The notes under the pieces are model-generated. The model did not search any database and was not told the origin of the DNA. It saw nothing but the letters and a program-made list of their open reading frames with translations. DNA of 64,000 nucleotides, taken from IMG/VR virus record IMGVR_UViG_3300031088_000776; one strand, written 5' to 3'. The position numbers were made by a program, and so were the translations under genes. This document shows, in pieces, positions 2,504-63,028 of this stretch. Source of the DNA: a virus (lineage: Duplodnaviria > Heunggongvirae > Uroviricota > Caudoviricetes). Position 1 is the stretch's first letter; each line of letters begins with the position of its first letter.

Positions 2504-2897
2504 TTAAAGGTCCATCTCAGAGTCAATAGTGTAGTAGACCTTCTTGATTCCAGCCTTACGTAGAGCGGCTTGGCAGTTTTCGCAGGGCTTGCTCATTGCT
2601 TGAGAATCATCCTTCAAGATTCGTGCTACATAAATGACAGCACCGCGAAGATCAGTCTTTCCGCAATTCCGGATAGCAGCTACTTCCGCGTGAACAGATA
2701 CTGCATGATCTGGATTTTCAACATAACCGTTTGAGAGTAGAGTACGGTTGACTCCTGACCCAACTTCTTTGCCGTTCTTAACTACGATTGCGGCGAGACG
2801 ATAAGTGCAGGTCGATGACTTTGCTAGCTCTGACGCCTTAGCTAGCTTCTCCTTTAGTGGAATGGGAAAGAGCCACCTTGAACTTCAAATCATTCAT
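2504..2897 (-). pseudogene. dCMP/cytidine deaminase paralog, frameshifted
   Basis: The reverse-strand translation MNDLKFKVALSHSTKGEAS* is followed, in another frame, by ...AIVVKNG...HAEVAAI...PCENC..., which is co-linear with the intact copy at 3000-3392. Confidence 0.7.
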
Positions 2898-2999
2898 GAT
2901 TCGTACTCCTAAAATTTAAGAATTTGTTTTAACAAGTATAACTATATCAAGTAGTTGTCTTTTGGCAAAACTTGCAAAAATATTTTAGACAGTATGTTC

Positions 3000-3392
3000 T
3001 TACAGATCCATTTCAGAATCAATAGTGTAGTAGACCTTCTTGATTCCTGCTTCTCGAAGTGAATTCTGGCATCGGTCGCAAGGCTTACTCATTACAGGGT
3101 CACCACACTTCGAAACGCGGGCCACATAGATAACAGCTCCATTAAGATCTGCGCCGCGGGACGCCTTGATAGCTGCTACTTCAGCATGGATTCCCGCTCC
3201 AGTCTTAGGATCAGTGATCTGACGAGGATTGTTAACTTTGTAATTAACTCCTTGAGAAATGACATTGCCATTCTTAACAATGATAGCGCCATGCTGATGG
3301 CGATACTTAGAAGTTTTTGCTAATTGTAAAGCACGGTCTAGTAGATCCTTAGTTCGCGCGGACTGCGGAGCTCGGAACTTCAAATTCGACAT
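3000..3392 (-). CDS. deoxycytidylate (dCMP) deaminase
   Basis: Carries the HAEVAAI and PCDRC zinc-binding motifs of the CMP/dCMP deaminase family. GAAAGG lies 11 nt upstream of the ATG that starts MSNLKF. The longer ORF reaching 3437 is possible. Confidence 0.85.
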   Translation of the reverse strand: MSNLKFRAPQSARTKDLLDRALQLAKTSKYRHQHGAIIVKNGNVISQGVNYKVNNPRQITDPKTGAGIHAEVAAIKASRGADLNGAVIYVARVSKCGDPVMSKPCDRCQNSLREAGIKKVYYTIDSEMDL

Positions 3393-3538
3393 GTGCTTTA
3401 AGCCTTTCAAAAAATCAATATGTAACTCATTAATCATACAAAAAATTCTTAAATATTCAAAATTGCGAAAAGCAGTATTGAAAATTTCATTAAAACTTTC
3501 AAAAAATAGTTATATTTGATATAGTTCTAACAAACAAT

Positions 3539-3610
3539 GCTTTTGTGGGCTATAGGTAGGCCAGTTGACTCTAAATCAACCGTATGCGAGTTCGATTCTC
3601 GTCAAAAGCA
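3539..3610 (+). tRNA. tRNA with anticodon CUA (amber suppressor, tRNA-Sup)
   Basis: Hand-folded cloverleaf. Acceptor stem GCTTTTG/CAAAAGC, U8, D-stem GGCT/GGCC with A14 and G18G19. Anticodon stem GTTGA/TCAAC around the loop C-T-CTA-A-A, with U33 and A37. 5-nt variable loop. T-stem GCGAG/CTCGT with a TTCGATT loop. Discriminator A. No encoded CCA. Confidence 0.85.
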
Positions 3611-3868
3611 CTTTAAAAACTTTTTAAATACACTCTAAAACGAAAGGTGATTCAAAAATGACCTAGGTACTTTTGACTCATAATTCACTTTATTTCAAGC
3701 GGGCTTGCTTACTGCATGCTCGCTTATTCAGCATGCTCTGTCGATTAAGAATATAAGATATGTGCGAATGCATAGTCAAAAAACATCGCGTAAAAAGACT
3801 TAAACATATAAACGCACATCTAACTATACCAGAAAACAATCTTAATCAATAGTACAGGAGTACTAATC

Positions 3869-4408
3869 ATGTCTAACATCAAAGACACTCTAGAAGAATT
3901 AAAAGCTGTAAGAGAATTTCGTGAAGTCAAGGCTAAGAGAGCTAGACTGGATCTTTATAAAGCAATAGAAAAAAGAAGAATCAAGGCGCGAGTGATTGTT
4001 CTAGCAGTCTTAAGAAAGAAATTTTCGAAAGATGATTTTTTGGCCCTTGAGTACCGAATTAAAACTCGTAAGAATCTTGACTACTCTAAAGAGTTGAACT
4101 GGGTTCTTCAAGAAAAAACTAATGATAGAGACTTCATTACTCAAGAGCAGATTATTTTGGCTTCTCTTTCTGTTCGAGAAGTTGCTAGAAGAACTCGAAT
4201 TGAGGTTGATGCTTTCAAGAAGTCTGAGAAACTTCGATTGAAAAAGAAAGAACTTCAAGAAAATATTGAGTTACACGATACTCTTAATAAAGAGAAGACT
4301 GAGAGATATATTAAGGACAGCATGATCCAAAAAGAGATTAATACTGCTCGTATAAGAAAGAATACTCTTATTAAAGAAATTCAAAAACTCGAAAGCGAAG
4401 TCAAGTAA
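3869..4408 (+). CDS. hypothetical coiled-coil protein
   Basis: ORF rich in Lys, Glu and Arg. Confidence 0.5.
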   Translation: MSNIKDTLEELKAVREFREVKAKRARLDLYKAIEKRRIKARVIVLAVLRKKFSKDDFLALEYRIKTRKNLDYSKELNWVLQEKTNDRDFITQEQIILASLSVREVARRTRIEVDAFKKSEKLRLKKKELQENIELHDTLNKEKTERYIKDSMIQKEINTARIRKNTLIKEIQKLESEVK

Positions 4409-4409
4409 A

Positions 4410-4922
4410 ATGAATCATCTGCAAAAAATTATTGTTAAATCAAATGAGTTAGACTCTAAGAGAGAAGAATTATCAGTAGCTCAGGAAGATTTTCTTAAAG
4501 AGGAACAAGTCTTCAATAAGAGTGTTTCGCGCGAGACTCTTAACTTGCTATTCGTTGGCCGCAATGTTCTTAAAAAGATCTTAAGCCCAATAGAGTTTAA
4601 GAAGTTTGAAAGAGGATACTATAAAACTCAGTTCTTCTCTGGGCTTAAATGGCTGAGAATCCATGACCCTAAAATTAGTTTTGAGGTATGGAGAACTGAC
4701 CCTAGTAAGGGAACAATTATTTTGAAGGGTTTTGATTGTAGTGGTAATTATCTAGCTTACTCTATTTCAGCAGATATTTTGAATTATAGTATTAGAGAAT
4801 TTGCGAAGATGGTTAGGGTTCAATCTAAAGAGGCTCTTATAAAGTCTTGGGAGGATGAAATTTTAAAGGCTGAAGAGACTATCGAGCGAAATAAAAAGAA
4901 TTTGAAGAAATTTACTCACTAA
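4410..4922 (+). CDS. hypothetical protein
   Basis: ORF whose start abuts the stop of the preceding gene. Confidence 0.5.
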   Translation: MNHLQKIIVKSNELDSKREELSVAQEDFLKEEQVFNKSVSRETLNLLFVGRNVLKKILSPIEFKKFERGYYKTQFFSGLKWLRIHDPKISFEVWRTDPSKGTIILKGFDCSGNYLAYSISADILNYSIREFAKMVRVQSKEALIKSWEDEILKAEETIERNKKNLKKFTH

Positions 4923-4991: not shown

Positions 4992-5402
4992 TTGATTGAA
5001 ATGACTGTTGAAGCTATCGCTAATATGCGTCTCGATAAAATCCGCTTGAAGAAAATTATTCAAAGACTTAATGAAGAGTTAGGCCCGGGGCTTGTTTCAA
5101 GGGCGGCTTCAGATAAGGGTTACTTCATGTCTATTGAGTGGTGCTCATATGGAGCTGGCCATGCTGAGCCTACTGCTACTGAAGAGGTTAAAATTTTAGC
5201 CTTAGCAACAACTTGGGAGGCACTTTCCCGATTCGGTTCCTCTAATGCTTTAGATTGGCTACAAAATAGCAATTCTCTTCTTGACAGTGAGAGTCCTATT
5301 GAAGTTTTGAGTAAAGGGCACTTCGAGGATTTTGATAATGCATTTGAAGCTCAACTCAATGAGATTCGAGATGTAAGATTAAAGCGAGGATTTGCCGCTT
5401 AG
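4992..5402 (+). CDS. hypothetical protein
   Basis: ORF ending in a tandem TAG TAG, followed by a terminator. Confidence 0.5.
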   Translation: MIEMTVEAIANMRLDKIRLKKIIQRLNEELGPGLVSRAASDKGYFMSIEWCSYGAGHAEPTATEEVKILALATTWEALSRFGSSNALDWLQNSNSLLDSESPIEVLSKGHFEDFDNAFEAQLNEIRDVRLKRGFAA

Positions 5403-5587: not shown

Positions 5588-6679
5588 GTGAAGTATCATG
5601 TTAACGATGAAGGTCGAGTTCTTGTTTGCAAGGCTGATGTTCGAAGCTGTAACTTCGGTGAAGAAGAAGGCGGTATTGGCCACTATCCTAACCCTAAAGA
5701 CGCTGAGAAAGCATATGAGCGTCATATGCAATCAAAAATTTTCGCGAATGTTTCACGTCATCCTGAAATTCGTTACGAAGCTCCTTTAGAGTCTGCTAGT
5801 TATCATGAAAAAGTCCTTAGAGACTGCTATGACCGAAACAAAGAAATGTCGCAAATACAGCTGGCTAAACATTATAACTATGTTAGCGATACTATTTCAG
5901 AGCTTTATAAAAAAGGGATGACTACTGAAAAGACTCACGCTAGAGAAACTAAAGCTGGCCTAGCATTTAATGATGAAAGAGTCAAGGCTCATACTGAAAT
6001 CATTAATGAATTTATCGAAAAATATAAAGAAGTTCCTGAAAATGGTGAGGCTTTGTTCGCTGGCGGTCTCGGCGGGGCAGGCAAGTCTACAGTTCTAGGG
6101 CAATACGCTGGAATTGATCAATCGAAGTACGTAACCTTAAACCCCGATGATATTAAAGAGATTATGGCTGAGAAAGGATTGATCCCTAAAGTTAAGGGTC
6201 TGACTCCAATGGAGGCATCTCCTTTAGTCCATGAAGAGGCATCGCATATTACTGCTATAATCTTTGAAAAGATTCGTCAAAAGAAAAAGAATATTATCTT
6301 CGATATAACAATGTCTAGTCTTGGTTCAGTACAAAATAGAATACTTCATCTTAAGAAAGCAGGATATACTAAAGTTAGTGGTGTTTTTGTGGATATTACT
6401 CCAGAGACTTCGCATGAGAGAGGCGAGTATCGCTACCGTCAAGGTCTTCAGGATTATCTGAAAAATAAAAACGGCCACGGTGGGAGATTCTTACCGGGTA
6501 ATATTACAAGTGGTTTAAAGACAGATGAAGATAGTCAATTTAAATCTAAGAATGCTGAAAACTTTGTGAATCTTGCTAAACTTGGCGGTTTCACGCATAT
6601 GCCTCGAGTTTTTAATAATAATGTTTTTGGTCGTGACCCACAAGAAATAAGCTTTAAGAAGTTCGTTAAAGGTGAGTAG
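5588..6679 (+). CDS. N-module family protein with a C-terminal P-loop kinase (zeta-toxin/AAA_33-like)
   Basis: N-terminus MKYHVNDEGRVLVCKADVRSCNFG..GHY..AEKAYE carries the shared module. The C-terminal domain has the Walker A motif GGLGGAGKST. Confidence 0.5.
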   Translation: MKYHVNDEGRVLVCKADVRSCNFGEEEGGIGHYPNPKDAEKAYERHMQSKIFANVSRHPEIRYEAPLESASYHEKVLRDCYDRNKEMSQIQLAKHYNYVSDTISELYKKGMTTEKTHARETKAGLAFNDERVKAHTEIINEFIEKYKEVPENGEALFAGGLGGAGKSTVLGQYAGIDQSKYVTLNPDDIKEIMAEKGLIPKVKGLTPMEASPLVHEEASHITAIIFEKIRQKKKNIIFDITMSSLGSVQNRILHLKKAGYTKVSGVFVDITPETSHERGEYRYRQGLQDYLKNKNGHGGRFLPGNITSGLKTDEDSQFKSKNAENFVNLAKLGGFTHMPRVFNNNVFGRDPQEISFKKFVKGE

Positions 6680-7607: not shown

Positions 7608-8381
7608 ATGACTAGATACCATATTAACGATGCGGGTAATCCTGGGCAGTGTGAAGCGAAGATCAAGTGCCGCTTTGGTGATTTAGAGACTGAGCATTAC
7701 GGATCGCGAGAAGAAGCTGCACAAGCCTATGAAGAGAAGCAAGAAAAGGAGATTCAAGAAGCGCGGAAAGCCTTAGACACTCTTAATAAACTTGAAGGTG
7801 TTAGCAGAAGTTTAACTAAAAACTCAGATAGACTTAGACAAAAGATTGAAGCTACAGAGAAGATCGTTAAAGTTGCGTCTAACGAGGGGAATTTAGATTC
7901 TTTCGAGAAGCATTATAATGAATTAAAAAAGCTTGAAGCAGAACGTAAAGAAGTTGAGACGAAACGAAAAGAAGTTGCTTCAATAATCTCTAAAAAAGAA
8001 GAGTTACAGAAATCAAGCTCACAAAAGACAACAGCTGCTCAACTACGAATTGCTGAAGATAAAACACTAGAGACTCGAGCTAAACTAATTAAAGATAAAT
8101 CAAAGTTGCAGGCTGCTGAAAAGAAGTTTAACTCAAAAATAGCCTCTAGGGCTGATATAAGCGAGCTGAAGCCACTTATGGAAGAACTTAAAATATTACA
8201 AGATCAAGTTGAACAATCTAACTCAGACTGGAAGAAGGCTACCTCTGAACTTTCAAAACTTAAGAAAGCGGAGCCAAAACGAAAGAAAAGCAATCCAGAA
8301 GTAAAGACGCTTAAGAAGTCTTCTCGAAGTGAAGATTACTACAATTATAATTGTGGTGGATACGGATCTGGTCGATGCTAA
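7608..8381 (+). CDS. N-module family protein with a Lys-rich coiled-coil C-terminus
   Basis: N-terminus MTRYHINDAGNPGQCEAKIKCRFG..EHY..AAQAYE. The remainder is a coiled coil that ends CGGYGSGRC. Confidence 0.5.
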   Translation: MTRYHINDAGNPGQCEAKIKCRFGDLETEHYGSREEAAQAYEEKQEKEIQEARKALDTLNKLEGVSRSLTKNSDRLRQKIEATEKIVKVASNEGNLDSFEKHYNELKKLEAERKEVETKRKEVASIISKKEELQKSSSQKTTAAQLRIAEDKTLETRAKLIKDKSKLQAAEKKFNSKIASRADISELKPLMEELKILQDQVEQSNSDWKKATSELSKLKKAEPKRKKSNPEVKTLKKSSRSEDYYNYNCGGYGSGRC

Positions 8382-10149: not shown

Positions 10150-10929
10150 GTGGGATTGAACGCAATTGAATTGTCAGAGAAATACGATTTAGACAGAACT
10201 TTAGTAGAGAGAGCATATTCTAATATTAAAGAAAAGAAAGTCGTATTCTTTGCTATTTCTGGAAAGATCGGTGCGGGGAAAGATTCAGTTGCGCCGCGTA
10301 TTCTAGAGGCTATGAATATTCGGTCAAATGATTGTGAGCATGAGTTTTTCGCTCGGCCTCTTAAGACTGAGGTTACACAATTAGTTAATATTTGCAGATA
10401 CTCTGGAGCTTTTGAAGAAGCTGTTGAAAGAACTATTAAAGAATTAAGTGTTAAGCCTGAAAGAGCAAAAGAAGCTGTCACACTTCTTTATCGTGATGTT
10501 AAGCAAGGTGAGGTCACTAGCGGTTATGATCGCACACCTTCAGTCCGTTTAGCCTTGCAGCATTGGGGTACTGAGGTTCGCCGTGAGCAAGACGATCTTT
10601 ACTGGGTGAAAAAAGCCTTGAAGAATACTATTGAAAAACTTGCTGAAGGAAAGAACGTATATATTACTGACACTCGATTCCCTAATGAGAATGATTCAAT
10701 TATCGATTCAACTGGGATTACTATTAGATTATTAGTCTCCCCAGAAGAGCAAATAAGACGAATCCAGTCCCGTGATGGAATCGAAGTTACTGAATCTTCA
10801 AGGAATCATATTTCTGAAACAGCGCTTGATGACTATACCGATTTTGACATTACTGTCGATACGGATGAGAATAGTATTGAAGAAGTTGTTGGAATTATTA
10901 AAGGAAGTGAAGTATGGCAGAGAAACTAA
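10150..10929 (+). CDS. deoxynucleoside monophosphate kinase (T4 gp1-like), paralog 2
   Basis: ISGKIGAGKDS P-loop. VRLALQHWGTEVRREQDDLYWVKK and YITDTRFPNEND match T4 gp1 (SGVKRSGKDT, VRRLMQALGTDL..MYWVK, YIVPDTRQDHE). Confidence 0.7.
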   Translation: MGLNAIELSEKYDLDRTLVERAYSNIKEKKVVFFAISGKIGAGKDSVAPRILEAMNIRSNDCEHEFFARPLKTEVTQLVNICRYSGAFEEAVERTIKELSVKPERAKEAVTLLYRDVKQGEVTSGYDRTPSVRLALQHWGTEVRREQDDLYWVKKALKNTIEKLAEGKNVYITDTRFPNENDSIIDSTGITIRLLVSPEEQIRRIQSRDGIEVTESSRNHISETALDDYTDFDITVDTDENSIEEVVGIIKGSEVWQRN

Positions 10930-11486
10930 TTCAACTTGCTATTGATCTAGACGAGGTAGTCTTTGATTATGTTGGCGGAGTTCGAGAGTATGGCAAGACT
11001 AAAGGTGTTATTTTGCCTGATAGCGAGCCTTCGCATTTCTCTATGACGGAATCTGGATGGTTTAAGACTATGAGTGACTTCCATGAATTTCATAGAGGGG
11101 CTGTAGTTGACAATATTTACCAGAATCTAAAGGTTATCGAGGGAGCTTCTGAAACTCTTCATGAACTTTCAGATTCAGGGTATGGGATTAATATCCTAAC
11201 TTCTCGCTTCGTTCTTCCGCGTCAGCATAATCTTGTTGTCACTCAGACTGTTAATGCTCTAGATATGTTTGACATCCCATATTCAAATATTACCTTTAGT
11301 AATGAGAAGTGGCGCCATAAGTATGATGCATATTTTGAGGATGCTCCGCATAATCTTATCCCTTTGCAAGAACATGGTCTTTATACTGTAACTTTTGATC
11401 GACTTTGGAATAGAGATGTTCCTGGTGATCGAGCAAGAGGTTGGAGCGAATTCCGTGAAGTTCTTAAGGGAAAGTTCGGGAAGTAA
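10914..11486 (+). CDS. HAD-family 5'(3')-deoxyribonucleotidase-like
   Basis: The N-terminal AIDLDEVVFDY is a DxDxV motif typical of the NT5C-type HAD nucleotidases. Confidence 0.5.
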   Translation: MAEKLIQLAIDLDEVVFDYVGGVREYGKTKGVILPDSEPSHFSMTESGWFKTMSDFHEFHRGAVVDNIYQNLKVIEGASETLHELSDSGYGINILTSRFVLPRQHNLVVTQTVNALDMFDIPYSNITFSNEKWRHKYDAYFEDAPHNLIPLQEHGLYTVTFDRLWNRDVPGDRARGWSEFREVLKGKFGK

Positions 11487-12678: not shown

Positions 12679-14052
12679 TTAATCTTCCTCTCCCTTCTCA
12701 ATTCTTGCGGCTTTCATCATTGCCATGAATTGATTTTTAACTCCTTGTTTTTCCCAAAAGTCCTTAATCTCGTTTCTTTGCTCTCCAGTAGTTGATTCGT
12801 CGCGGAAATCCTTAACACTAGCCCTTAAATCAGCAACTCTATCTTTTTTAGTTTGTTCCTTAGGCCATTGATATTCCCCAACTTCTTTGCGGTGAGTTTT
12901 GAAAATTGTTCGAAGATCTTTAAGGTCTTCATTCATAGCCTTACGATTATAGTCTTTACCAGTTTTAGCTCTAACGTTTTCCTCCATTCGGTCTCCAACA
13001 ACATCTAGAAGAGCTTTAGAGTTTAATTGGTAATTATCTTTTGTAGTATGGAAATTACGCCCTGGATTTTTAGGGTCAACAATTACCTTAGCGGTTGCCC
13101 AGTCTTTATACGGATTGTTGGCTGTATTCTCCCAATGCCCGTCAGAAATCTGCCCTTTAAGCTCATCTTCGAGCAACCATTTCTGCGCTTGAGTTCTAAC
13201 TCTAATAGTGTTGCCTTCGTCAGGAATCATGTGACCGAGACCGGCTTCTTCAAGCTCTGTCTGCTTATTCTCAACTTTTTTAATACTGTCTATCAATCGA
13301 CTACGAGCGCGTTCTTCACTTGCTTTATGCTTTTCAAGTCTCTCGACTAAATCAAATCCTTTACCTCTCGGATCAGAACCTGGAATCTTCTCTACTTTAT
13401 CAGTTTCTTTGTTGTAGCCGTAGTGATAGATACGACCTTCTTCTTCAGCATGTAGTTCATCATACTTCTTATGTCTCGAGATCATCTCGTTCAATTCGAG
13501 CCTTGCATAATTCTTATTTATAGCAGCAGTGTTCAATCCTTCAACCATAACCCTCTGCTTAGGTGTAGAGGTAATATTAGCTACGTAAGCGGGGATTTGT
13601 TGGATTGAATCTAGAGAGTCTTTCTCTTTTGCGTCAACATTACTCTCTACAGAGGCACCGTCTTCACGCTTCCAAGCCCCGTAACCTGCGCGAAGTTTTT
13701 CAGCAGTTGCAGATGTAGAAAGTTCCTTGCCTCCCTTGAAGGCTCGAACACTACCGTCTGGTTGAATCTCAATAACCTTACCCTGCGGATGCACATAACG
13801 CTCGACTTTAGAAGCGACTTCATATGCCCCACTAGTTAGAACACCGTTATTTGCTGAAGTAGGTTTATCATTAGTCTTTCTAGATTTCTTCATTGGTTTT
13901 TGAACTGTTTGTGAAGCCATTGAGAGTTCATATGCCTGCTGAGCTATCTCAGGTGACGAATAATGCTGTGCATCTCCACCAAATTTGCAATCACGAATTT
14001 CTGCAGTGCAGACTCCCGGGACTCCCTCATCGTTAACATGATATTTAGCCAT
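12679..14052 (-). CDS. N-module family protein (457 aa), C-terminal domain unknown
   Basis: N-terminus MAKYHVNDEGVPGVCTAEIRDCKFG..QHY..AQQAYE. Confidence 0.55.
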   Translation of the reverse strand: MAKYHVNDEGVPGVCTAEIRDCKFGGDAQHYSSPEIAQQAYELSMASQTVQKPMKKSRKTNDKPTSANNGVLTSGAYEVASKVERYVHPQGKVIEIQPDGSVRAFKGGKELSTSATAEKLRAGYGAWKREDGASVESNVDAKEKDSLDSIQQIPAYVANITSTPKQRVMVEGLNTAAINKNYARLELNEMISRHKKYDELHAEEEGRIYHYGYNKETDKVEKIPGSDPRGKGFDLVERLEKHKASEERARSRLIDSIKKVENKQTELEEAGLGHMIPDEGNTIRVRTQAQKWLLEDELKGQISDGHWENTANNPYKDWATAKVIVDPKNPGRNFHTTKDNYQLNSKALLDVVGDRMEENVRAKTGKDYNRKAMNEDLKDLRTIFKTHRKEVGEYQWPKEQTKKDRVADLRASVKDFRDESTTGEQRNEIKDFWEKQGVKNQFMAMMKAARIEKGEED

Positions 14053-15261: not shown

Positions 15262-15433
15262 TCTTAGAGTAGCGAAAACTGCGCTACTAAGACCACCTAG
15301 TTTGCCGTGATAGGCTCGGGTCTAACTAGGTGGTCTTTTCATGTTTAGATGCAGTTTTAACGGAAAATACTGTTTACTGTATGACTATACCCTAGACAGT
15401 AAAACCGATGCTACAGGACGCTTAGGCTCGACC
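15262..15433 (-). repeat. family A composite repeat, copy A2 (reverse orientation; acts as a + strand terminator)
   Basis: ctgcgctactaa, then gaccacctagtt [21-nt loop] aactaggtggtc, then tttt, followed by the reverse complement of the ttagggtatagtcatacag module. Confidence 0.8.
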
Positions 15434-16160: not shown

Positions 16161-16997
16161 AAAGACTCTCCTATCAAGCTATTTAACTCTAATATCCTAT
16201 CACATGAGCATCCATCTCCTCTAACACTTTAAGAGTTTTTGAATAGGGCTAAAAGTACAGTTTTCTGTTGCTAACTACCTTACCTACCATGGACATTAAC
16301 TTGAGGGGTATAGGGACCTGCTAAGTGAACAGTGCCACCATACCCTCACTTACTCAGACTCAACCCTCTCGACACATCGCCACTCTATCCCTAGTCACGG
16401 TGCTCGCTCAACATACACTCAACAGTCAGTAAACCCGGTTCTCTCAGCAGTATAGCGAAGAGGTGAACAAATACTCACGGAAAACTAGCTACTGCGAGAC
16501 TGTCTGGTGTCGCTGTTTAGCGTATATGACAAATCGACTATTGAGATTACTGATGTAGCTTGGTTTCTATAATTATATATTAGGCTGTTAGTCGAAGGAA
16601 CCTCTGAATAGTCATCTGACGTAATGTATTCTTCTCTAGTTTCAATGAGGCCTGACGAACTAGATATTTTTGTTTAATTGGGTTCTAGCTTCATTAGAAC
16701 TGACGCTAACTACCTTACCTACCATAGACTTTAGCTTGAGGTGTATACGCGTGCATAATCACCTGCTCCCACCGCTCACTCAAATTTACTAAAAAGTTAT
16801 AAAGATGGCCATAAGAAAGTTACTGGCAAAATTACAATCGCTGACAACACGTTATAGAAAAATAAAAAATTGCGTTAAAGCGAAGAGTTTGATAATGTTT
16901 GTGAGTGATGACCTATATCACGCAAATCTAGTTATCACTTGGTAAAAGTTTTTTGATAGGATAATCAAGTGTCACACTGCACCAACAAGGGGGAACA
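16161..16997. other. 837-bp ORF-free, C-rich structured region; candidate large ncRNA
   Basis: No ORF of 60 aa or more on either strand. It holds the B2 repeat (16403-16530), two copies of ctaactaccttacctaccat.gac (16271, 16706) and the hairpin gaggggtatagg/ccataccctc. Confidence 0.35.
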
Positions 16998-18485: not shown

Positions 18486-19337
18486 ATGCCTAAAAAAGAA
18501 GAATTAACCGCAAGGGAACAAGTGCGGCTTGAAATGAAGAAAATGAATCAAGGTAATAAAAGAGGTGGCTTCTTTTCCAATAAGTTCGTAATCACGTTCG
18601 GAGTCATCTTTATTATCGCAGCATTTGTAGGCTCGCTTTTAATGTTTGGCGAAAAGCAGCAGGAAGAAGCTAAAAAAGCTATGGCCCCCGTTGTAGATTT
18701 AGTACCTGAAAAGGTTGACGAAAATGGTGCTTTCAGAGCTGTTCAAACAAAAAACAACGAACTTTCTAAGGATGCTGTTCGAGTAGATCTATTCTTCGAC
18801 CCACAATGCCCAGGCTGTGGAGCCATGGATAGAGCAATCGGTAGTGATCTTCGAGAACTTTCCGAAACTGGAGAAATTGATCTTTATTTGAGCCCAGTCG
18901 CGTTTTTAGATAATTCCGGTTATAACAGATACTCTACTAGAGCAACTAATGCTGTCGTCACTGTTGCTGAGGAATCACCTGAAAATCTTGTAAAATACAT
19001 AAACGCAATTTATTCTGAAGAATTCCAGCCTGCTGAAGGCGGCGCAGATCGCCGCACTGACGATGACCTCATTAACGAAGCTGTAGAGGTTGGAGTACCA
19101 CAGGATTCAGCTAATAAAATTAAGAATCACTCATACTTTAAATGGATTGAAGAGACTACAGAATTACAGACTAACCGTCAAGATCTGTTTGCAGGAGGAT
19201 TCTCCACTCCATCACTATTCTTAAATGTTGAGTACAGTGAAGATAATAAAGCTATTAACTTCAAGAAGCTTGATTTCTCTAACGGTTCAATTCAGGACGT
19301 ATTCAATAAAGAACTTAAAGAAGCTAAGAAAGGCTAG
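18486..19337 (+). CDS. membrane-anchored DsbA/thioredoxin-like thiol:disulfide oxidoreductase
   Basis: N-terminal TM helix followed by the CPGC active-site motif in FFDPQCPGCGAMD. The gene ends TAG TAA TAA. Confidence 0.55.
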   Translation: MPKKEELTAREQVRLEMKKMNQGNKRGGFFSNKFVITFGVIFIIAAFVGSLLMFGEKQQEEAKKAMAPVVDLVPEKVDENGAFRAVQTKNNELSKDAVRVDLFFDPQCPGCGAMDRAIGSDLRELSETGEIDLYLSPVAFLDNSGYNRYSTRATNAVVTVAEESPENLVKYINAIYSEEFQPAEGGADRRTDDDLINEAVEVGVPQDSANKIKNHSYFKWIEETTELQTNRQDLFAGGFSTPSLFLNVEYSEDNKAINFKKLDFSNGSIQDVFNKELKEAKKG

Positions 19338-25072: not shown

Positions 25073-25531
25073 ATGAGCGAATCAATAAATGATTTCAATA
25101 GATCCGACATTGTAAATAGGGCGATCATTCTAGCGAATAAAGCGCATTCCCAGGATATGTGGGGTGAGCACCCTTATTCAATTCATCTTGCGCTTACTGC
25201 AGTAAAGATTCGAGAAGTGATCCCTGGAGTTCCGATGGCGGAGGCAGCAGCTTGGCTTCATGATGTAGTTGAGGATCATCCAGAATATGCTTCACAGGTT
25301 CGCGAAGAGTTTCCTGAAGTCTATGAAGCTGTAGTGAACGTTTCTCGTAAGAGTGATGAGAGTTATGATGAGTTTATTGATAGAGTCATCGGAACTAAGG
25401 ATAGACTGACGATTTCTTTGAAATATGCGGATATGTCAGTAAATCTAGGTAATAATCCTCGCGAGAGTTTGCGTGAAAGATATGAGAAGAATATTGATAG
25501 GTTAGCAGAAGCCCTCAAAGAATTTGAATAA
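25073..25531 (+). CDS. HD-domain phosphohydrolase
   Basis: A His in HSQDMWGEHPYSIHLAL followed by LHDVVEDH gives the H...HD...D pattern. Confidence 0.55.
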   Translation: MSESINDFNRSDIVNRAIILANKAHSQDMWGEHPYSIHLALTAVKIREVIPGVPMAEAAAWLHDVVEDHPEYASQVREEFPEVYEAVVNVSRKSDESYDEFIDRVIGTKDRLTISLKYADMSVNLGNNPRESLRERYEKNIDRLAEALKEFE

Positions 25532-25671
25532 ACATATTAAAATCTTTGTTTTTGAAAGTCTATAATTTCTTGTTACAATTATTTTAGTGCGTTGCTTCTT
25601 ACTGCACTATAAAAACTAAGGAGCTGGTGGCGACCCTGATAATCAAAAAAATTTTGAAAGGTTGCAAAATA

Positions 25672-26724
25672 ATGAGAAAGCTAGTAACAGTAAAGACTAT
25701 CGACCAGATTACACCAATCCCAGATGCTGATCGCATCGAGGTAGCGAGAATTGATGGTTGGAATGTAGTCGTTGGTAAGGATCAGCATCATGTTGGAGAA
25801 AAGGTCGCTTTCTTCGAGATCGACTCTTTCCTTCGTGAAGATCTTCCAAGGTTCGAGCAGTTTCAGTCACGTGGTCAGAAGGCCATGGAGGTTGAAGGTG
25901 TAGAGCTTAGAGGCCATGTTCTTAAGACTATTAAGCTTCGAGGCGTATACTCTCAAGGGCTTATTATGAGCCTTGAAGCTGTTGGGTTCAATCCAAGCGA
26001 AGTGGCTGAACTTACTGAAGGTACGGACATTACTAATATTGCCGGCGCGTTAAAGTGGGAGCCTCCGCTTCCTACCTCTGTTGAAATCATTGGTGAGTTT
26101 GATACTCGTCACTCTCCGAAGACTGATGCAGTTCGATTACAAAACATTGTTGATCTGTGGGATGAGATTCGAGAAATTGACTGGACTCCTACAGTAAAGG
26201 TTGACGGAACATCCCAGACATTTGCTAACTTTGACGGTAAAATTCGTGTCTTTGGTAGAAATTGGGAACTCGATCCAGAAACTTCAGTAGGCCTTAAGCT
26301 CGCTCGTGAGAATGGTATTTTTGAAGATCTTGAAGAAATGGGTAATAGCTCTGTAATTCAGGCAGAGCTAGTCGGTCCAGGTATTCAGGCTAACTCTTTG
26401 AAGCTTCCAGGTAAGAGACTTATTGTTTTCTCTGTTTGGAGGAATGGAGTTAAGCTTGAGCGTAGCGAGTGGCCTGCTTCTGCATTGAAGCATTCGACTC
26501 CTATTCTAGGTGACGAATATCTTCCAAAGAACTTTGAAAGCGCTGAAGGTCTTATTGATTTTGTCAACGGTCTTAAGGGGAGCGTTAGCAAGAATGTTAA
26601 AGATGAGGGTGTGGTTTACCATCCAGTGAACCCATCTTCAGTACCTCTAGAGTTAGTGAATAGCCTTGATCGCAATCTTAACTTTAAGGTTATTTCAAAC
26701 GCTTGGCTTTTAAAGAATTCATAA
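25672..26724 (+). CDS. ATP-dependent RNA ligase (N-terminal OB-like domain plus nucleotidyltransferase)
   Basis: Motif I KVDGTS in TVKVDGTSQTF and motif IV EGVV in KDEGVVYHP, with a Lys-containing C-terminus. GAAAGG RBS lies before the ATG at 25672. Confidence 0.55.
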   Translation: MRKLVTVKTIDQITPIPDADRIEVARIDGWNVVVGKDQHHVGEKVAFFEIDSFLREDLPRFEQFQSRGQKAMEVEGVELRGHVLKTIKLRGVYSQGLIMSLEAVGFNPSEVAELTEGTDITNIAGALKWEPPLPTSVEIIGEFDTRHSPKTDAVRLQNIVDLWDEIREIDWTPTVKVDGTSQTFANFDGKIRVFGRNWELDPETSVGLKLARENGIFEDLEEMGNSSVIQAELVGPGIQANSLKLPGKRLIVFSVWRNGVKLERSEWPASALKHSTPILGDEYLPKNFESAEGLIDFVNGLKGSVSKNVKDEGVVYHPVNPSSVPLELVNSLDRNLNFKVISNAWLLKNS

Positions 26725-28575: not shown

Positions 28576-29409
28576 ATGAATAGAATTTATAGGAATCTTG
28601 AAGAAATTGCACCTCATTTAGTTTCAGAGTGGGATATAGAACGCAATGGGAATAATCTTTACACTCATTTTTGGAATACTCGAGAAGACCCACCCCACTG
28701 GAAATGCAAAAAAGACCACCGGTGGACTATGCGATGGGATGCTAGAGTTGATCAAGGGCAAAATTGCCCCTATTGCTCTGGTAGAAGAATTATAGTCGGG
28801 GAGAACGATCTTCAGACTCGATTTCCAGAGATTTCTAAAGATTGGTCATTCGAATTAAACGAGCGAACGCCTATTGATTATCACCCCTATTCCCATAACA
28901 GAGTTTGGTGGAATTGTTCTGAAAATATTCACAAACCCTATTCACAGTTAATCTCTAAAAGAACTGGTCGTGGTACAGGTTGCCCTGAATGCTCTAAAGG
29001 TAGGGGCTCATCTAAAGGTGAATTTGAAGTTGGCCAACTTCTTGAAAGCATGGGGCTAAATTTTATACAGAATTCTAGAAAGATTATTCCACCTATGGAA
29101 TTAGACTTTTATATTTCTTCTCTTAATATTGGGATTGAATACAATGGAGAGTGGATGCATTCTAATCAAGCCTTGAAGCCTGATTCAAAGGATTCAAGTT
29201 TTCGTGATTATCACCTTAGGAAAAAGCGGCTTGCTAATTCTGAGAGTATTGATTTAGTTTTTGTGTGGGAGCATGATTGGACTGTACATAGAGATATAGT
29301 AAAAGAAGCTTTAATAGTGTTTTTCAAAACTGGGAAAATTTCAAAAATTCTTTCTCGTTTAGAGTCTTTTAAAGATGTTGATAAGGATTGCTGTTTATCG
29401 CGAGTCTAG
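28576..29409 (+). CDS. zinc-ribbon repeats plus a Vsr/DUF559-like endonuclease domain (homing-endonuclease-like), paralog 1
   Basis: WKCKKDHRW..CPYCSG, WNCSENIH..CPECSKG, then ELDFYISSLNIGIEYNGEWMHS..DLVFVWEHDW, which resembles the Vsr FVDGCFWH core. Confidence 0.6.
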   Translation: MNRIYRNLEEIAPHLVSEWDIERNGNNLYTHFWNTREDPPHWKCKKDHRWTMRWDARVDQGQNCPYCSGRRIIVGENDLQTRFPEISKDWSFELNERTPIDYHPYSHNRVWWNCSENIHKPYSQLISKRTGRGTGCPECSKGRGSSKGEFEVGQLLESMGLNFIQNSRKIIPPMELDFYISSLNIGIEYNGEWMHSNQALKPDSKDSSFRDYHLRKKRLANSESIDLVFVWEHDWTVHRDIVKEALIVFFKTGKISKILSRLESFKDVDKDCCLSRV

Positions 29410-29435: not shown

Positions 29436-29582
29436 AAGTAAAAACTGCGCTACTAAGACCACCTAGTTTGCCGTGATAGGCTCGGGTCTAACTAGGTGGT
29501 CTTTTGCAGTATTTTCGCAGTTTTACAGTGAAATGCTGTCTACTGTATGACTATACCCTAAGCAGCATTTTTGATGCTATAG
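29436..29582 (-). repeat. family A composite repeat, copy A3 (reverse orientation; terminator-like on the + strand)
   Basis: aaaactgcgctactaa, hairpin core, tttt, then the reverse complement of the ttagggtatagtcatacagtagac module. Confidence 0.8.
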
Positions 29583-30909: not shown

Positions 30910-32049
30910 ATGAATACAGTGAACTTTAAAGGTAATAATTATGATACAGATAAAATCGCTCGACTTTATATTGAAGAAAATCTAACTCTTCAGGAAACCT
31001 TTGAAAAACTCAAAGATGAGATAGACTTAAATATTAAAGAGTTCAAAAGCTTAGTAAACAAGACTGGGCTTAAAAAGAGTGACTCTAATAGACGCGAGTC
31101 GCAGGGGATAAAGAATCATAGGATTACTCAAAGAATTCTTAAAATTATAGAATCTTCAGAAAAGAAACTTAACTCTTTTTCTAGTAAGACTGCTTATGCG
31201 AGATATCTCCACTCAGAGAATCCCGAGTATTCAGTTAGACAATTCGAGAAGAGGATTGTTATAGAAGATAAGAAAGATTTTGTAAGATTTTTTGAAGTTT
31301 ATCCAGAGTTGAAAGATTATTTATATGATAAAGACTCTTTAGATATAAACTCAATAAGTATCTCTAGTCATTTAATTGTTGATTGGATCTGCGATTTGTC
31401 TCATATCTATCAGAGGTCATTTCAGGAAATGAATAGAGTAAAGAAATATTGTTACTACTGTAGTAATCAAAAAGTTCTTAAAGGTTTTAATGATCTTAAA
31501 TCTCAGTATCCTTTGATTGCCCTTGATTATTCATTTAGCAATGATTTAAAAGCTGATGAGATTTATTGTAAGTCTAGCAGAATAGTTGAGTGGGTTTGCC
31601 ATAAATGTAGCCTTAAATGGTCTCAAGCTCTTTGCAATAGAACTTCTTATAGCGAATCAGAATGTTCTAATTGCACTGATCGTATTTCGAAGCATGAGTC
31701 GAGAGTTTTAGAATTTGTTAAGACTTTCTATACTGGAGAGATACTGAGAAATAAAATGCCTTTACGTGAGGGGTCATCAAGATTTCAGATAGACATTCTT
31801 TTACCCGAACTTAAACTTGGTTTTGAGGTTCAGGACTTCGCTACACACTCTAAGACTTCAGAAGATGAGGTTTCTAGATTTAAGGGTGTTACTGGGCTAA
31901 AGAAAGGTCCTAATTATCATGAGAATAAGCGGAGGCTTGCTAAAGAGCAATTAGATGTGACTTTGATAGATCTTTGGCAGGATGAGATTGAATCTGGAGA
32001 TTTTGAAGAAGTTATTTTAGAAGCTATTCGTGAAGTCAAGGGCGCTTAA
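30910..32049 (+). CDS. zinc-ribbon repeats plus a Vsr-like endonuclease-like domain, paralog 2 (divergent C-terminus)
   Basis: WICDLSH..CYYCSNQKVLKGFNDL and WVCHKCSLKW..CSNCTD, then QIDILLPELKLGFEVQD. Confidence 0.5.
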   Translation: MNTVNFKGNNYDTDKIARLYIEENLTLQETFEKLKDEIDLNIKEFKSLVNKTGLKKSDSNRRESQGIKNHRITQRILKIIESSEKKLNSFSSKTAYARYLHSENPEYSVRQFEKRIVIEDKKDFVRFFEVYPELKDYLYDKDSLDINSISISSHLIVDWICDLSHIYQRSFQEMNRVKKYCYYCSNQKVLKGFNDLKSQYPLIALDYSFSNDLKADEIYCKSSRIVEWVCHKCSLKWSQALCNRTSYSESECSNCTDRISKHESRVLEFVKTFYTGEILRNKMPLREGSSRFQIDILLPELKLGFEVQDFATHSKTSEDEVSRFKGVTGLKKGPNYHENKRRLAKEQLDVTLIDLWQDEIESGDFEEVILEAIREVKGA

Positions 32050-36309: not shown

Positions 36310-37095
36310 ATGACTGAAAATAAAATTAAGAAGGTAGTAATCTTCGCGGGTGGAGAAGGAACTCGACTCGCGGAGCTTACTGAAAAAACTCCGAAGCCTT
36401 TAGTTAATATTGGCCCAGACCCAGTAATTGTCCATATCATGCGACACTTCTATCGTGCGGGTTACAGAGAATTTGTTATTGCTGTAGGTTATAAGTCTAT
36501 TGAGTTTAAGCGTTACTTTAGAGATTATGTTCTTGCAAAGCGTGATGTTACTTTTACTAAGAATGACATTCAAGTGAAAGACTCTAATGATGTTGAAGAC
36601 TGGATTGTCCATGTTGTAGAGACTGGCGAAAAATCCACTACAGCGCAACGATTAAATGCTGTAGCGCCATATATTGATGGCGAACCATTCTTCCTCACTT
36701 ATGGTGATACTGTATCAGATGTAGACTTAAAGAAGCTTGAAGAAGTTCATTTCTCACGCCCTGAAGGAAATCTAGCAACGCTAACTGCAGTCAATATTGA
36801 AGAGCGTTTCGGTATTCTTAAGTTGAATAAAGAAACTGGTGCAGTTGATAAATTCAGCGAGAAGTCTTCTGATAAAGAAAATATGATCAATGGCGGCTTT
36901 ATTGTATGTAATCCTGAATTGCTCAATGAGGTGAATGAAAACTCAGGTGACTTTAGCCATGAGACGCTTAATCGCTTAGGTGACGAAAACAAGTTGAGTT
37001 TCTATCGTCATGATGGATTCTGGAGCGCTATGGACACTAAGCGCGATAATGACAAGCTTAATAAGCTATACGTCACGAATCCAGAATTATTCTAG
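36310..37095 (+). CDS. glucose-1-phosphate cytidylyl/thymidylyltransferase (RfbF/RmlA-like)
   Basis: VVIFAGGEGTRLAELTEKTPKPLVNIG matches the N-terminal GGxGTRL nucleotidyltransferase signature. Confidence 0.8.
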   Translation: MTENKIKKVVIFAGGEGTRLAELTEKTPKPLVNIGPDPVIVHIMRHFYRAGYREFVIAVGYKSIEFKRYFRDYVLAKRDVTFTKNDIQVKDSNDVEDWIVHVVETGEKSTTAQRLNAVAPYIDGEPFFLTYGDTVSDVDLKKLEEVHFSRPEGNLATLTAVNIEERFGILKLNKETGAVDKFSEKSSDKENMINGGFIVCNPELLNEVNENSGDFSHETLNRLGDENKLSFYRHDGFWSAMDTKRDNDKLNKLYVTNPELF

Positions 37096-41508: not shown

Positions 41509-42195
41509 ATGGAGCCAATGGTTCTTGAATCTTTACTAATTTTTGCCGCATCTCTTTTAATTCCGGCAGGCTTACTTATACTCTCACTTAAAAGAAAGCC
41601 AGTATGGGTTCCTGAAGGACCATTGGCTCCATTCTGGTCTAAATTAAACTATTTTAGTTTCGGCCTTTCAGCTTTAGTTTCAGCTTTGGTAGTTATCTTT
41701 TATAAAGATTATGCATTCACTTTTAAAGGATTAGTGGCTTTAACTGTAGCGCCTTATGCCTACATATTTCTTCAAACTCTTTTTACAGACTTTAAGCAAA
41801 GGCTAGCTGACAGAAGAATCTTAAATATTAGCATTGTATTTTCAGCGATATTAGGGATAATTTTCTTAAATCATTATAATTATCCTGATCTAGTCAACTT
41901 TGTTCTATTCTTTATTTTTACTGCAATACTATTCTTTATCCCGTCAATTGGTGAGTCCGATACTCGAGCCTTAGCCTTGACATTGTCTGTAGCTTATCCT
42001 ATTATTGGTCTAACTGGAATTAAGCTTGCATTAATATTATTCTTCCCGCTTCTTATTAGTTATTTTATTTATTTAGCAATAAAGAATAAGAACTTTAAAG
42101 CTGCTTTTGCTGCTCGAGTCTCTATTCCTATGGTCCCTTTTATAATTCTACCCGCACTTCTTCTTGTAGTTTCATATCCGTTTATGAGCTTTTAA
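41509..42195 (+). CDS. polytopic membrane protein
   Basis: At least six predicted TM helices. Confidence 0.5.
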   Translation: MEPMVLESLLIFAASLLIPAGLLILSLKRKPVWVPEGPLAPFWSKLNYFSFGLSALVSALVVIFYKDYAFTFKGLVALTVAPYAYIFLQTLFTDFKQRLADRRILNISIVFSAILGIIFLNHYNYPDLVNFVLFFIFTAILFFIPSIGESDTRALALTLSVAYPIIGLTGIKLALILFFPLLISYFIYLAIKNKNFKAAFAARVSIPMVPFIILPALLLVVSYPFMSF

Positions 42196-52491: not shown

Positions 52492-52640
52492 AGACAGTAT
52501 TTTCTTCCTTAGGGTATAGTCATACAGTAGACAGTATTTCACTGCAAAACTGCATAGAAACAGTAAAAGACCACCTAGTTTGCCGTGATATTCTCGGGTC
52601 TAACTAGGTGGTCTTAGTAGCGCAGTTTCTACTCGATCTA
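52470..52640 (+). repeat. family A composite repeat, copy A4 (loop inverted relative to A1-A3)
   Basis: ttagggtatagtcatacagtagacag ... gaccacctagtt tgccgtgatattctcgggtct aactaggtggtc ttagtagcgcagttt. Confidence 0.8.
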
Positions 52641-52724
52641 GAAAACAGCAAAATTATCAATCTAAAATAACTTTCAGTACAATCTTGATAAATACTATAT
52701 GATTACGAAAGAAAGTTTCAAATA

Positions 52725-53786
52725 ATGTCTAAGAAAGTCCTAAGGGGAGTCACAGATCTATCCTCACAAAAACCAGACGTAGCAAAAGATTGGGATTATT
52801 CTAAAAATTCTAAAACTCCAGGTGAAGTGTCTCAATACTCTAATAAGACAGCATGGTGGGTTTGCAATGAGCTTCACTCATGGGAGTCTGTTATTGCGAA
52901 TAGATCTAAAGGTTCGGGATGCCCCGAATGCGCTAAAACTACTCGCGGTGAAAATATTAGTAAAGCTAAAAATATTAGTAATAAGCCATTATATGGTCAT
53001 AAAGAGCTTAAGAAAGAATTCTGCATAGTTAATTCTTACAATCCATACATTAAAGGAAATTCATATCAATCAAAAGTTCTATGGATATGCTCGGAATGTT
53101 CAAAAAGTTGGGTTGCTAAGATTAGCAAAAGAATTAAAGGTAGTGGTTGCCCAAATTGCTGGAAGTTAAACAAAGGTAAAGAATATGTTAAATCAATAGT
53201 TAGATCTAAAGGTTCACTATTCTACACTAATCCAGAAGTTCAAGAATATTGGGACTACGAGAAGAATAAGTTACATAAAATTTATCCAGAAAAGTTTTCA
53301 GCAGGGTCTCACTCTTACGCCTATTGGTTTTGCCCAAAATGCAAGCATTCATGGAGGGCAATAATAAAAAGTGTCGCAATCAAGGGTTCAAGATGTTCTA
53401 AGTGCATGAGTAAAACATCTAAAGGGGAAGAAGAATTATTTAATTTCGTTAGAAGTCTTTATAAAGACGCAATCAAGAATGATAGGAAAATTGTCAATCC
53501 TAAAGAATTAGATATTTATATTCCTAGCAAGAAAGTAGCAATAGAGTACAACGGTGAATATTGGCACTCTAATGAAGTTATGTCTGTTAGAATAAACAGA
53601 ATTTCTGAAGAATATCACAGAGAGAAGATACAGATTTGTGAGGCATATGGAATTGATTTACTTTTTGTCTGGGAGGATGATTGGCTTAGGAATAAAGACA
53701 CAGTTAAAGAATTAATTATAAGATACTTTGATAATAGACAAAAGAACAGCATATTTAAAAGACTTATTTCTAATAGAGATCTATAG
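52725..53786 (+). CDS. zinc-ribbon repeats (at least five) plus a Vsr/DUF559-like endonuclease domain, paralog 3
   Basis: WWVCNELHSW..GSGCPECAK, WICSECSKSW..GSGCPNCWK and WFCPKCKHSW..GSRCSKCMSK. The C-terminus is ELDIYIPSKKVAIEYNGEYWHS..LLFVWEDDW. Confidence 0.6.
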   Translation: MSKKVLRGVTDLSSQKPDVAKDWDYSKNSKTPGEVSQYSNKTAWWVCNELHSWESVIANRSKGSGCPECAKTTRGENISKAKNISNKPLYGHKELKKEFCIVNSYNPYIKGNSYQSKVLWICSECSKSWVAKISKRIKGSGCPNCWKLNKGKEYVKSIVRSKGSLFYTNPEVQEYWDYEKNKLHKIYPEKFSAGSHSYAYWFCPKCKHSWRAIIKSVAIKGSRCSKCMSKTSKGEEELFNFVRSLYKDAIKNDRKIVNPKELDIYIPSKKVAIEYNGEYWHSNEVMSVRINRISEEYHREKIQICEAYGIDLLFVWEDDWLRNKDTVKELIIRYFDNRQKNSIFKRLISNRDL

Positions 53787-55750: not shown

Positions 55751-55782
55751 AAAATTTCACTAAAGTCAACCTAAAAGATAAT

Positions 55783-62990: not shown

Positions 62991-63028
62991 ACATTATAGA
63001 ATCAGTATTTTCAACTTCTATTCAGTCT

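Follow-up and report, generated by a model that had tools for sequence, protein, structure and literature searches.

Phages that encode suppressor transfer RNAs (tRNAs) with a CUA anticodon are best known from lineages in which the amber codon TAG has been reassigned, among them the Lak megaphages, crAss-like phages and ‘code 15’ gut phages (bioRxiv 10.1101/2021.08.26.457843, PMC9523058, PMC13037316). In such recoded phages, in-frame stops are concentrated in structural and lysis genes (PMC13037316; bioRxiv 10.1101/2021.08.26.457843), and recoded jumbo phages lack in-frame stops over most of the genome, their recoding sitting in hallmark genes (PMC13037316). Suppressor tRNAs also occur in standard-code relatives of recoded phages, and accessory code-change genes are optional even where recoding has taken place (bioRxiv 10.1101/2021.08.26.457843). 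Here we describe a CUA tRNA gene in a 64,000-nucleotide stretch of DNA, hereafter the window, from the virus record IMGVR_UViG_3300031088_000776. Phage genes for CUA suppressor tRNAs are well known, and the gene described here is of this familiar kind. We hold, with moderate confidence, that it is a functional and selectively maintained amber suppressor, carried as an accessory gene by a phage of ~0.7 Mb and serving few targets.

The gene has ordinary elongator tRNA architecture and is a genuine CUA tRNA. ARAGORN reports it as the sole tRNA of the window (3539-3611, plus strand), with CTA at gene position 33, and the Rfam tRNA model RF00005 spans 3539-3610 from end to end (model positions 1-71 of 71), with 62.6 bits where the gathering score is 29 (E = 3.5e-11); no other Rfam family rises above threshold within the window. 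No second tRNA lies in the 82,862 bp that we analysed (hereafter the 83 kb), which consist of the window and flanks of ~9 kb and ~10 kb and make up 12% of a 697,643-bp contig. An earlier note, made from the bare sequence, had described a canonical 72-nt cloverleaf with a UAG-reading anticodon, and all of its listed structural features are seen in the Rfam alignment, with the anticodon where ARAGORN puts it (Table 1). The acceptor stem of 7 bp (GCUUUUG/CAAAAGC) is followed by U8, a D stem of 4 bp whose loop contains GG, an anticodon stem of 5 bp bearing the loop at 3569-3575 with U33 and A37, a variable loop of 5 nt, a T arm with the loop UUCGAUU, and a discriminator A at 3610. ARAGORN labels the gene a pyrrolysine tRNA (tRNA-Pyl), from the anticodon alone. 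That class is marked by an anticodon stem of 6 bp, a variable loop of 3 nt and a very short D loop without G18G19, and it has no T-psi-C; the 5-bp anticodon stem, 5-nt variable loop, D-loop GG and T-loop TTCGA seen here led us to reject the label, and no pyl gene is found among the Pfam annotations of the 83 kb.

The gene encodes no CCA, the next bases being CTT, and in this it resembles most suppressor tRNAs of recoded phages (PMC10879173). The same feature, together with a conserved structured RNA downstream and an RNA ligase of the DRB0094/Rnl5 type, recalls the units of suppressor tRNA and theta ribozyme (a minimal one resembling that of hepatitis delta virus, HDV) described in PMC10879173. 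A theta ribozyme must start within ~5 nt of the tRNA 3' end (PMC10879173), whereas the conserved element here begins 32 nt downstream and resembles a ribosome-binding site followed by an open reading frame (ORF) and a hairpin. A permissive Rfam E-value scan of 3400-3900 returned no match to a theta or HDV ribozyme or to a T-box, a result obtained without the theta-ribozyme descriptor of PMC10879173, and the first ~30 nt 3' of the tRNA are AT-rich and unconserved.

Comparison with relatives indicates that the tRNA is maintained by selection. We compared the window, by DNA and protein identity, with four related contigs, L006 (SRR29026073), L026, L027 (SRR34902453) and L028 (SRR27391386), and found a syntenic tRNA in the same spacer of three of them from as many other sequencing runs: L006, L027 and L028. 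L028, with ~93% DNA identity, carries the promoter and the first 33 nt of the tRNA, at which point the contig ends; L027, at ~91%, differs by one G-C to G.U change in the T stem; and L006, whose proteins are 45-91% identical and whose DNA is ~72% identical, has a tRNA-CUA that departs from that of the window by ten substitutions and one single-base deletion while keeping all 21 stem pairs. Two of these pairs have changed by compensation (G11-C24 to A-U and U29-A41 to C-G). The four assemblies give three distinct full-length sequences, a small number, in which every one of the 63 stem cells forms a standard pair, two further pairs have changed on one side with pairing retained, and the anticodon loop does not vary. 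Pairing falls to 27-51% when partners are shifted by 1-3 columns; a shuffle control gave 54/500, a figure of low power with three sequences. Exact and anticodon-free patterns of the tRNA had no match in IMG/VR or GTDB, and the first 20 kb of the window had none among GenBank phages by megablast.

The surroundings of the gene suggest that it is transcribed by the host polymerase. Its spacer, 430 nt long, is flanked by a dCMP deaminase gene on one side and a gene for a 179-aa protein on the other, and a consensus scan at 3498-3525 finds TTCAAA-16-TATAGT with an upstream TG, the end of the -10 element standing 13 nt from the mature 5' end. This extended -10 is conserved as TGATATAGT in the window and L028 and as TGATATAAT in L006, 11-13 nt 5' of the tRNA and 11 nt in these two relatives, and is altered in L027. 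An identical 11-mer also precedes the neighbouring deaminase paralogue. A terminator scan found no intrinsic terminator after the tRNA.

The same comparison indicates that the gene can be lost. L026, with ~91% DNA identity, is without window ~3503-4367, so that the tRNA, a small ORF downstream of it and the 179-aa gene are gone, and it is additionally without ~4482-4745. L027 retains the tRNA and is without ~3619-3878 and ~3949-4871, which removes the small ORF and most of two downstream genes; the deletion region lies at 9600-10000 in L026 and 9630-10000 in L027, corresponding to window ~3500-4870. These variants are short-read contigs from enrichment cultures (PMC13185236), which we take as assembled. 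If the L026 contig is faithful, the tRNA is dispensable in a close relative, and if both are, the tRNA and the two genes that follow it would form an accessory module that is decaying in the L026/L027 sub-lineage. A dependence of essential late genes on the tRNA would then be hard to reconcile with its loss in L026. Among more distant relatives, reached through the dCMP deaminase (57-65% identity), no tRNA is found nearby; they include a second huge contig of the same sample with a related deaminase (L011, ENA ERZ27247443 k141_1824480; 475,513 bp, with a guanine-cytosine (GC) content of 52% in the 20 kb read).

Around the tRNA, UAG is an ordinary terminator and the code is locally standard. 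Coverage of the 83 kb by ORFs of 100 aa or more is 83.6% under standard code 11 and rises to 85.9% when TAG is read as sense and to 85.5% when TGA is; since the gain for TGA is similar, that for TAG is not specific, and it falls below the 5-10% increase in coding density at which recoding has been called (PMC10879173). In a greedy non-overlapping set of 89 genes, the stops are TAA in 62, TAG in 14 and TGA in 13. TAG thus accounts for 16% of gene stops and TGA for 15%, against background shares among stop trinucleotides of 20-27% and 33-41%, so that TAG is the less depleted of the two among real stops. No long ORF is split by TAG, and neither of the marks of ‘code 15’, genes fragmented at in-frame TAG and rare TAG terminators, is found. 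Between the window and L006, four orthologues that end in TAG here end in TAA there, and the deaminase shows the reverse, TAA here and TAG there; in L026, without the tRNA, and L027, with it, neighbouring genes carry the same TAG stops. The tRNA-CUA is therefore not evidence of a changed genetic code in the 83 kb.

These figures also bear on what had been said of TAG in the window. The earlier note had counted at least ten genes ending in TAG, and ten ORFs of at least 100 aa do so; the four tandem-stop contexts that it quoted read as given, TAGTAG (4992-5402), TAGTAATAA (18486-19337), TAG ATT TTT TGA (36310-37095) and TAG TCT TAA (37160-39499). The suggestion that they act as protective backups did not stand. 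A second in-frame stop follows within two codons after 4 of 14 TAG stops (29%), 18 of 62 TAA stops (29%) and 6 of 13 TGA stops (46%), and a rate after TAG that equals the rate after TAA and is lower than that after TGA gives no evidence of buffering against readthrough; tandem stops occur at the background rate for a genome of 38% GC. Of the proposal that TAG is leaky rather than reassigned, the second half is borne out for the 83 kb by ORF coverage, the share of TAG among stops and the exchanges between TAG and TAA, and the whole is a reasonable way to read that stretch, while these data contain no evidence of the readthrough that leakiness would entail.

Set beside the recoded phages, then, the locus is alike in having a canonical CUA tRNA in a very large phage, among standard-code genes of early type, and in its source, which is again animal-faeces material (PMC13185236). 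It is unlike them in that sizeable genes of the 83 kb hold no in-frame TAG and coding density shows no specific gain, in its normal use of TAG stops, in the lack of a release factor 2 (RF2) gene nearby and in the loss of the tRNA from a close relative. Its GC content is 38%, and its domains of Gram-positive type (PASTA, G5, DUF3039) point weakly away from Bacteroidota, the hosts of Lak and crAss phages. Another parallel is an example from the Agate clade (bioRxiv 10.1101/2021.08.26.457843, Fig. 3A), in which a suppressor tRNA likewise accompanies normal termination at its cognate stop in the visible sequence, a combination that fits acquisition of the suppressor before, or without, recoding. 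The Agate-clade suppressor reads TGA and belongs to a phage of ~80-100 kb, in a low-GC clade already depleted of the stop, whereas the one described here reads TAG, in a genome of ~0.7 Mb where TAG is undepleted.

On the reading that we favour, a host RNA polymerase would transcribe the tRNA from its own extended -10 promoter, and host enzymes would trim the ends and add CCA. A37, in its A36-A37-A38 context, would probably be isopentenylated as in other tRNAs that read UNN codons, a host synthetase would charge the tRNA, and the product would read UAG against release factor 1 (RF1). Because UAG is an ordinary terminator in the 83 kb and the gene is lost in a close relative, its role would be that of a partial suppressor for a few amber ORFs and not that of an engine of genome-wide code change. 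Several considerations weigh against this reading. The 12% of the contig that is covered lacks structural and lysis genes, the very genes where recoded phages concentrate in-frame stops, and suppressor tRNAs are statistically tied to recoding (bioRxiv 10.1101/2021.08.26.457843). The deletion evidence comes from short-read enrichment contigs; the variants could be defective sub-populations, and a second suppressor copy could exist elsewhere. Expression, charging and suppression are all deduced from sequence. An efficient suppressor made early would lengthen 16% of local proteins, which implies weak suppression and makes its benefit questionable. Finally, the conserved small ORF downstream, discussed below, rests on two sequences, and its hairpin could explain part of the conservation.

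The strongest alternative, which we take seriously while doubting it, is that the tRNA is the code-switch device of a partly recoded phage on the Lak, crAss-like or ‘code 15’ model; the window would then be a standard-code early region in which the tRNA is produced, for later use in translating structural and lysis genes that carry in-frame TAG in other parts of the genome. Suppressor tRNAs show a strong association with TAG recoding, and the genes that change the code are themselves written in standard code (bioRxiv 10.1101/2021.08.26.457843). The concentration of jumbo-phage recoding in hallmark genes, and its absence from most of the genome (PMC13037316), is in keeping with a window whose genes are only those of replication, repair and nucleotide metabolism, and the tRNA is conserved and has a promoter of host type. 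The family of the DRB0094/Rnl5-like ligase is reported to be overrepresented among phages that have tRNA-associated theta ribozymes, and many such phages are recoded (PMC10879173), though we draw no conclusion from this. Against the alternative, TAG is undepleted in the 83 kb, whereas the proposed evolutionary route to recoding begins with TAG depletion (bioRxiv 10.1101/2021.08.26.457843), and a ~91%-identical relative has deleted the tRNA. The Pfam annotations of the 83 kb contain no RF2, synthetase or CCA-adding enzyme, no theta ribozyme follows the 3' end, and no recoded gene was found in the stretch read. With TAG undepleted among the stops and the tRNA lost in nature, a code switch becomes less probable.

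Several features of the sequence bear on the amino acid that the tRNA would carry. The body is of class I with a 5-nt variable loop, which excludes bacterial Tyr, Leu and Ser bodies. Its acceptor begins G1-C72, C2-G71, U3-A70, and the discriminator differs between lineages, being A in that of the window and G in L006. A single substitution separates the loop CUCUAAA from the typical loops of tRNA-Tyr (GUA), tRNA-Trp (CCA) and tRNA-Lys (CUU). U35 is a determinant common to the glutaminyl- and lysyl-tRNA synthetases, and many engineered CUA tRNAs therefore receive Gln or Lys in E. coli. Classical amber suppressors, such as E. coli supF, supE and supD and psu1+ of phage T4, are laboratory-selected single mutations of an identifiable parent tRNA. 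The loop here is identical to that of supF-type suppressors, and suppression would again be partial, in competition with RF1. In contrast to the classical cases, no parent was found: searches of phage records, IMG/VR and GTDB species representatives gave no sense-anticodon parent, and the CUA state is old enough for lineages that differ at ~28% of DNA positions to share it. Charging of engineered CUA tRNAs with Gln or Lys is also discussed in bioRxiv 10.1101/2021.08.26.457843. BLAST against phage records matched the T arm only, and nearest-neighbour scoring against 82 annotated phage tRNAs was uninformative on the amino acid. GTDB tRNAs that share the acceptor stem and T loop are tRNA-Thr in 11 of 18 cases; the rest of their sequence is a poor match and the anticodon determinants of threonyl-tRNA synthetase are missing, which tells against a Thr identity.

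That these comparisons yielded no amino acid identity is one of the points in favour of a tRNA without any decoding role, be it a neutral or decaying passenger (such as a sense tRNA with a mutated anticodon) or a tRNA-shaped RNA put to another use, for instance as a decoy for a host anticodon nuclease, a processing signal for the downstream transcript or an attachment site. We consider such a role unlikely. The module does appear to be decaying in one sub-lineage, by loss of the tRNA in L026 and, in L027, by the downstream loss, the change in the -10 element and the T-stem G-C to G.U change, and genes of RNA repair lie near. Despite ~28% DNA divergence, however, no stem pair has been lost, the canonical tertiary positions and the exact CUA loop persist, and some pairs have changed by compensation; such pairing and loop are the signature of a tRNA that still fits the translation machinery. 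A tRNA with a CUA anticodon, moreover, would be unable to replace a cleaved sense tRNA, and no sense-anticodon parent for a passenger of this kind was found in the collections searched. The repair genes are of interest in their own right: an RNA ligase of the DRB0094/Rnl5 type (PHA02142 OB domain and RNA_ligase), a Tpt1/KptA RNA 2'-phosphotransferase and an HD-domain protein together suggest a capacity for RNA or tRNA repair.

That the contig belongs to a small-genome bacterium or another extrachromosomal element, with the tRNA-CUA a cellular suppressor, is highly improbable: the contig's length, its type IV pilus operon, site-2 protease and class A penicillin-binding protein, and its RecA, DnaB, RecG and NrdE are cell-like, but the same 83 kb hold rIIB and rIIA-like genes, two deoxynucleotide monophosphate kinases, a 5'-nucleotidase, a TET-associated glycosyltransferase (TAGT), HNH and DUF4379 endonuclease-like genes, and a helicase loader and sliding clamp recognisable through PHROG profiles only, with no ribosomal protein, ribosomal RNA or synthetase gene, a single tRNA, and most proteins without a Pfam family. 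The assignment to a giant phage is strong, on gene content, though capsid and terminase genes are not among the 83 kb read, which contain no structural or lysis gene. Exact-protein look-ups place the window at record positions 159,909-223,908 of contig k141_1324127 of ENA ERZ27247443, and fragments identical to this contig are present in the Logan assembly of SRR8867410. Acinetobacter enrichment cultures made from the floor faeces of cattle farms yielded close relatives (SRR34902453 and SRR34902456; PMC13185236). Homologues of window proteins (P0139, P0141, P0142, P0150 and P0044) on other contigs of 542-828 kb from ENA and the Joint Genome Institute (JGI) point to a wider group of giant phages. 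The cell-like genes include cargo unusual for a virus. The pilus operon, in the left flank, comprises two PilB/PilT-type ATPases, PilC, a prepilin peptidase, PilM and a PilO-like gene, and is joined by the site-2 protease, the penicillin-binding protein, which carries a PASTA domain, and a second peptidase-A24-like membrane protein.

If the tRNA is a suppressor with few targets, the nearest candidate target stands directly downstream. The only ORF with an in-frame TAG in the 83 kb begins 47 nt 3' of the tRNA and reads ATG ACC TAG, 29 more codons and TAA, with the amber codon as codon 3 (3664-3666). Its counterpart in L006 has 33 codons, a 3-nt indel preserving the frame, and stops at the same aligned position. 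Synonymous codon differences between the two number 9 in this frame against 5 and 3 in the others, and a uniform-substitution simulation put the chance of an ORF that stays open with 8 or more such differences at P ~0.005. A 22-nt block around the start and the TAG, AAAATGACCTAGGTACTTTTGA, is the same in both sequences and occurs nowhere else in the window, with no match in IMG/VR. In the hairpin within the ORF, 23 of 24 cells pair, and the changes comprise one compensatory pair and two that affect one side only; there is no U-tract after it, and a scan found no terminator-like site there. These comparisons, drawn from two sequences, are suggestive of a coding and conserved ORF, though the constraint may be coding or structural, and the region is deleted in both L026 and L027. 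It is conceivable, although we give the idea a low probability, that the tRNA and the amber ORF form a self-contained amber-gated switch, a leader-peptide device that would sense suppression without genome-wide recoding. Ribosomes would halt after two codons unless the phage tRNA-CUA were made, matured and charged, and readthrough would yield a 32-residue peptide, or melt the hairpin and so control two downstream genes. Those two genes are lost together with the small ORF in the natural deletion variants.

Table 1. Positions of the tRNA-CUA gene, its associated elements and other features of the window (window coordinates unless a contig is named)
Feature	Position	Strand	Basis or remark
tRNA gene, anticodon CUA, 72 nt	3539-3610	+	ARAGORN, Rfam RF00005, syntenic copies in L006, L027 and L028
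Anticodon CTA (reads UAG), in loop CUCUAAA with A36-A37-A38	3571-3573	+	ARAGORN, Rfam; same loop in L006 and L027
Extended -10 promoter-like element TTGATATAGTT (TG-n-TATAGT)	3516-3526	+	Consensus scan; putative function
Shine-Dalgarno-like GAAAGGTG	3642-3649	+	8 nt 5' of the small-ORF ATG; GAAAGGT kept in L006
Candidate small ORF, 32 codons and TAA, MT-x-VLLTHNSLYFKRACLLHARLFSMLCRLRI	3658-3756	+	L006 comparison
Conserved 12-bp hairpin in the small ORF, AAGCGGGCTTGC - TTACT - GCATGCTCGCTT	3697-3725	+	Minimum free energy folds of both lineages
11-mer identical to the tRNA -10 element	2940-2950	-	Precedes deaminase paralogue
dCMP deaminase gene	3000-3437	-	Borders the tRNA spacer
Gene for 179-aa protein	3869-4408		Borders the tRNA spacer
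Second cytidine/dCMP-deaminase paralogue	2504-2897	-	Readable only with a +1 shift
Tpt1/KptA RNA 2'-phosphotransferase	1054-1581
HD-domain protein	25073-25531
RNA ligase, DRB0094/Rnl5 type	25627-26724
Type IV pilus operon	L004:175-7358		~9 kb left flank
Site-2 protease, class A penicillin-binding protein with PASTA, peptidase-A24-like protein	L004:175-7358; 37160-39499, 41509-42195
~150-nt intergenic repeat	308-454, 15275-15416 (reverse complement), 29441-29582 (reverse complement), 52508-52654, 62865-63011		Sixth copy ~5.1 kb past the right window end (L002)
~90-117-nt intergenic repeat	1760-1849, 16418-16534, 55639-55755; L006 1251-1372
Genes with the KYH-N module	5588-6679, 7608-8381, 12679-14052 (-), 60613-61695, 61743-62813; right flank ~69315-70622 (-)
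DUF4379 zinc-ribbon-repeat proteins	28576-29409, 30910-32049, 52725-53786, 54118-55608

Several further elements of the window are worth recording. Just downstream of the annotated deaminase is a second deaminase paralogue that no gene caller annotates. Its frame opens at ATG 2897-2895 (MNDLKFKVALSHSTK), and the 0 frame ends at TAA 2840-2838; the +1 frame is entered from ACT AAA|G GAG, with AAA at 2855-2853 and G 2852 skipped. The shifted arrangement recurs in 5 of 5 assemblies from three lineages (also L006 ~1900-2300, L026 and L027 ~10,540-10,930, and L028 ~670-1,060). Between the window and L006, codon differences in the body are synonymous in 41 cases and non-synonymous in 4, about half of those in the N-terminal part are synonymous when that part is read in its own frame, and after the shift site comes an invariant block of 47 nt that contains a GCTAGCT...AGCTAGC hairpin. 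The arrangement resembles a programmed +1 ribosomal frameshift, in which tRNA-Lys would slip from AAA to AAG.

Two families of intergenic repeats are also present. The first, of ~150 nt, occurs in six copies with the invariant blocks TAGGGTATAGTCATACAGTA and AAAGACCACCTAGTT...AACTAGGTGGTCTTAGTAGCGCAGTTT, the second of which forms a 14-bp stem around a variable inner stem. It matches no Rfam family, and its 20-nt core is found in two JGI contigs of ~1.5 kb only and nowhere in IMG/VR; it could serve as a promoter/terminator cassette, or be a small RNA or a miniature mobile element. The second, of ~90-117 nt, consists of a long inverted repeat (TCTAACAGCAGCTAA...TTAGCTGCTGTTAGA) followed by CTGTCTGGTGCCGCTG.

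At the protein level, six otherwise unrelated proteins have in common an N-terminal module of ~45 residues, M-x-KYH(V/I)N..G....C.A....C.(F/Y)G....H(Y/F)....EA, which has no Pfam match and has homologues on several further contigs, 0.5-0.8 Mb in size. The module has the appearance of a small Cys/His domain joined to varied effectors, including a zeta-toxin-like kinase and an ADP-ribosyltransferase. Four paralogous DUF4379 zinc-ribbon-repeat proteins with a Vsr-like C-terminal region are placed beside recA and after nrdE, much as homing endonucleases are; the window has no nrdF after nrdE. A search with one DUF4379 protein returned no further protein of the contig.

Overall, suppressor tRNAs in phages are now read almost automatically as a sign of an alternative code, and the locus described here argues locally against that reading, with TAG undepleted as a terminator, the tRNA dispensable in a relative and the sole in-frame TAG in an adjacent short ORF. 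Its interest lies in a genome of ~0.7 Mb, apparently outside the Lak and crAss groups, that combines a standard local code, natural deletion variants and a candidate amber-gated ORF next to the suppressor. If late genes of this phage carry TAG, then TAG recoding would extend to a new lineage of giant phages, apparently outside the groups that infect Bacteroidota. If the rest of the 0.7-Mb genome is written in standard code, the suppressor would be one that is kept for limited or regulatory readthrough, a stage that has been proposed to precede recoding.

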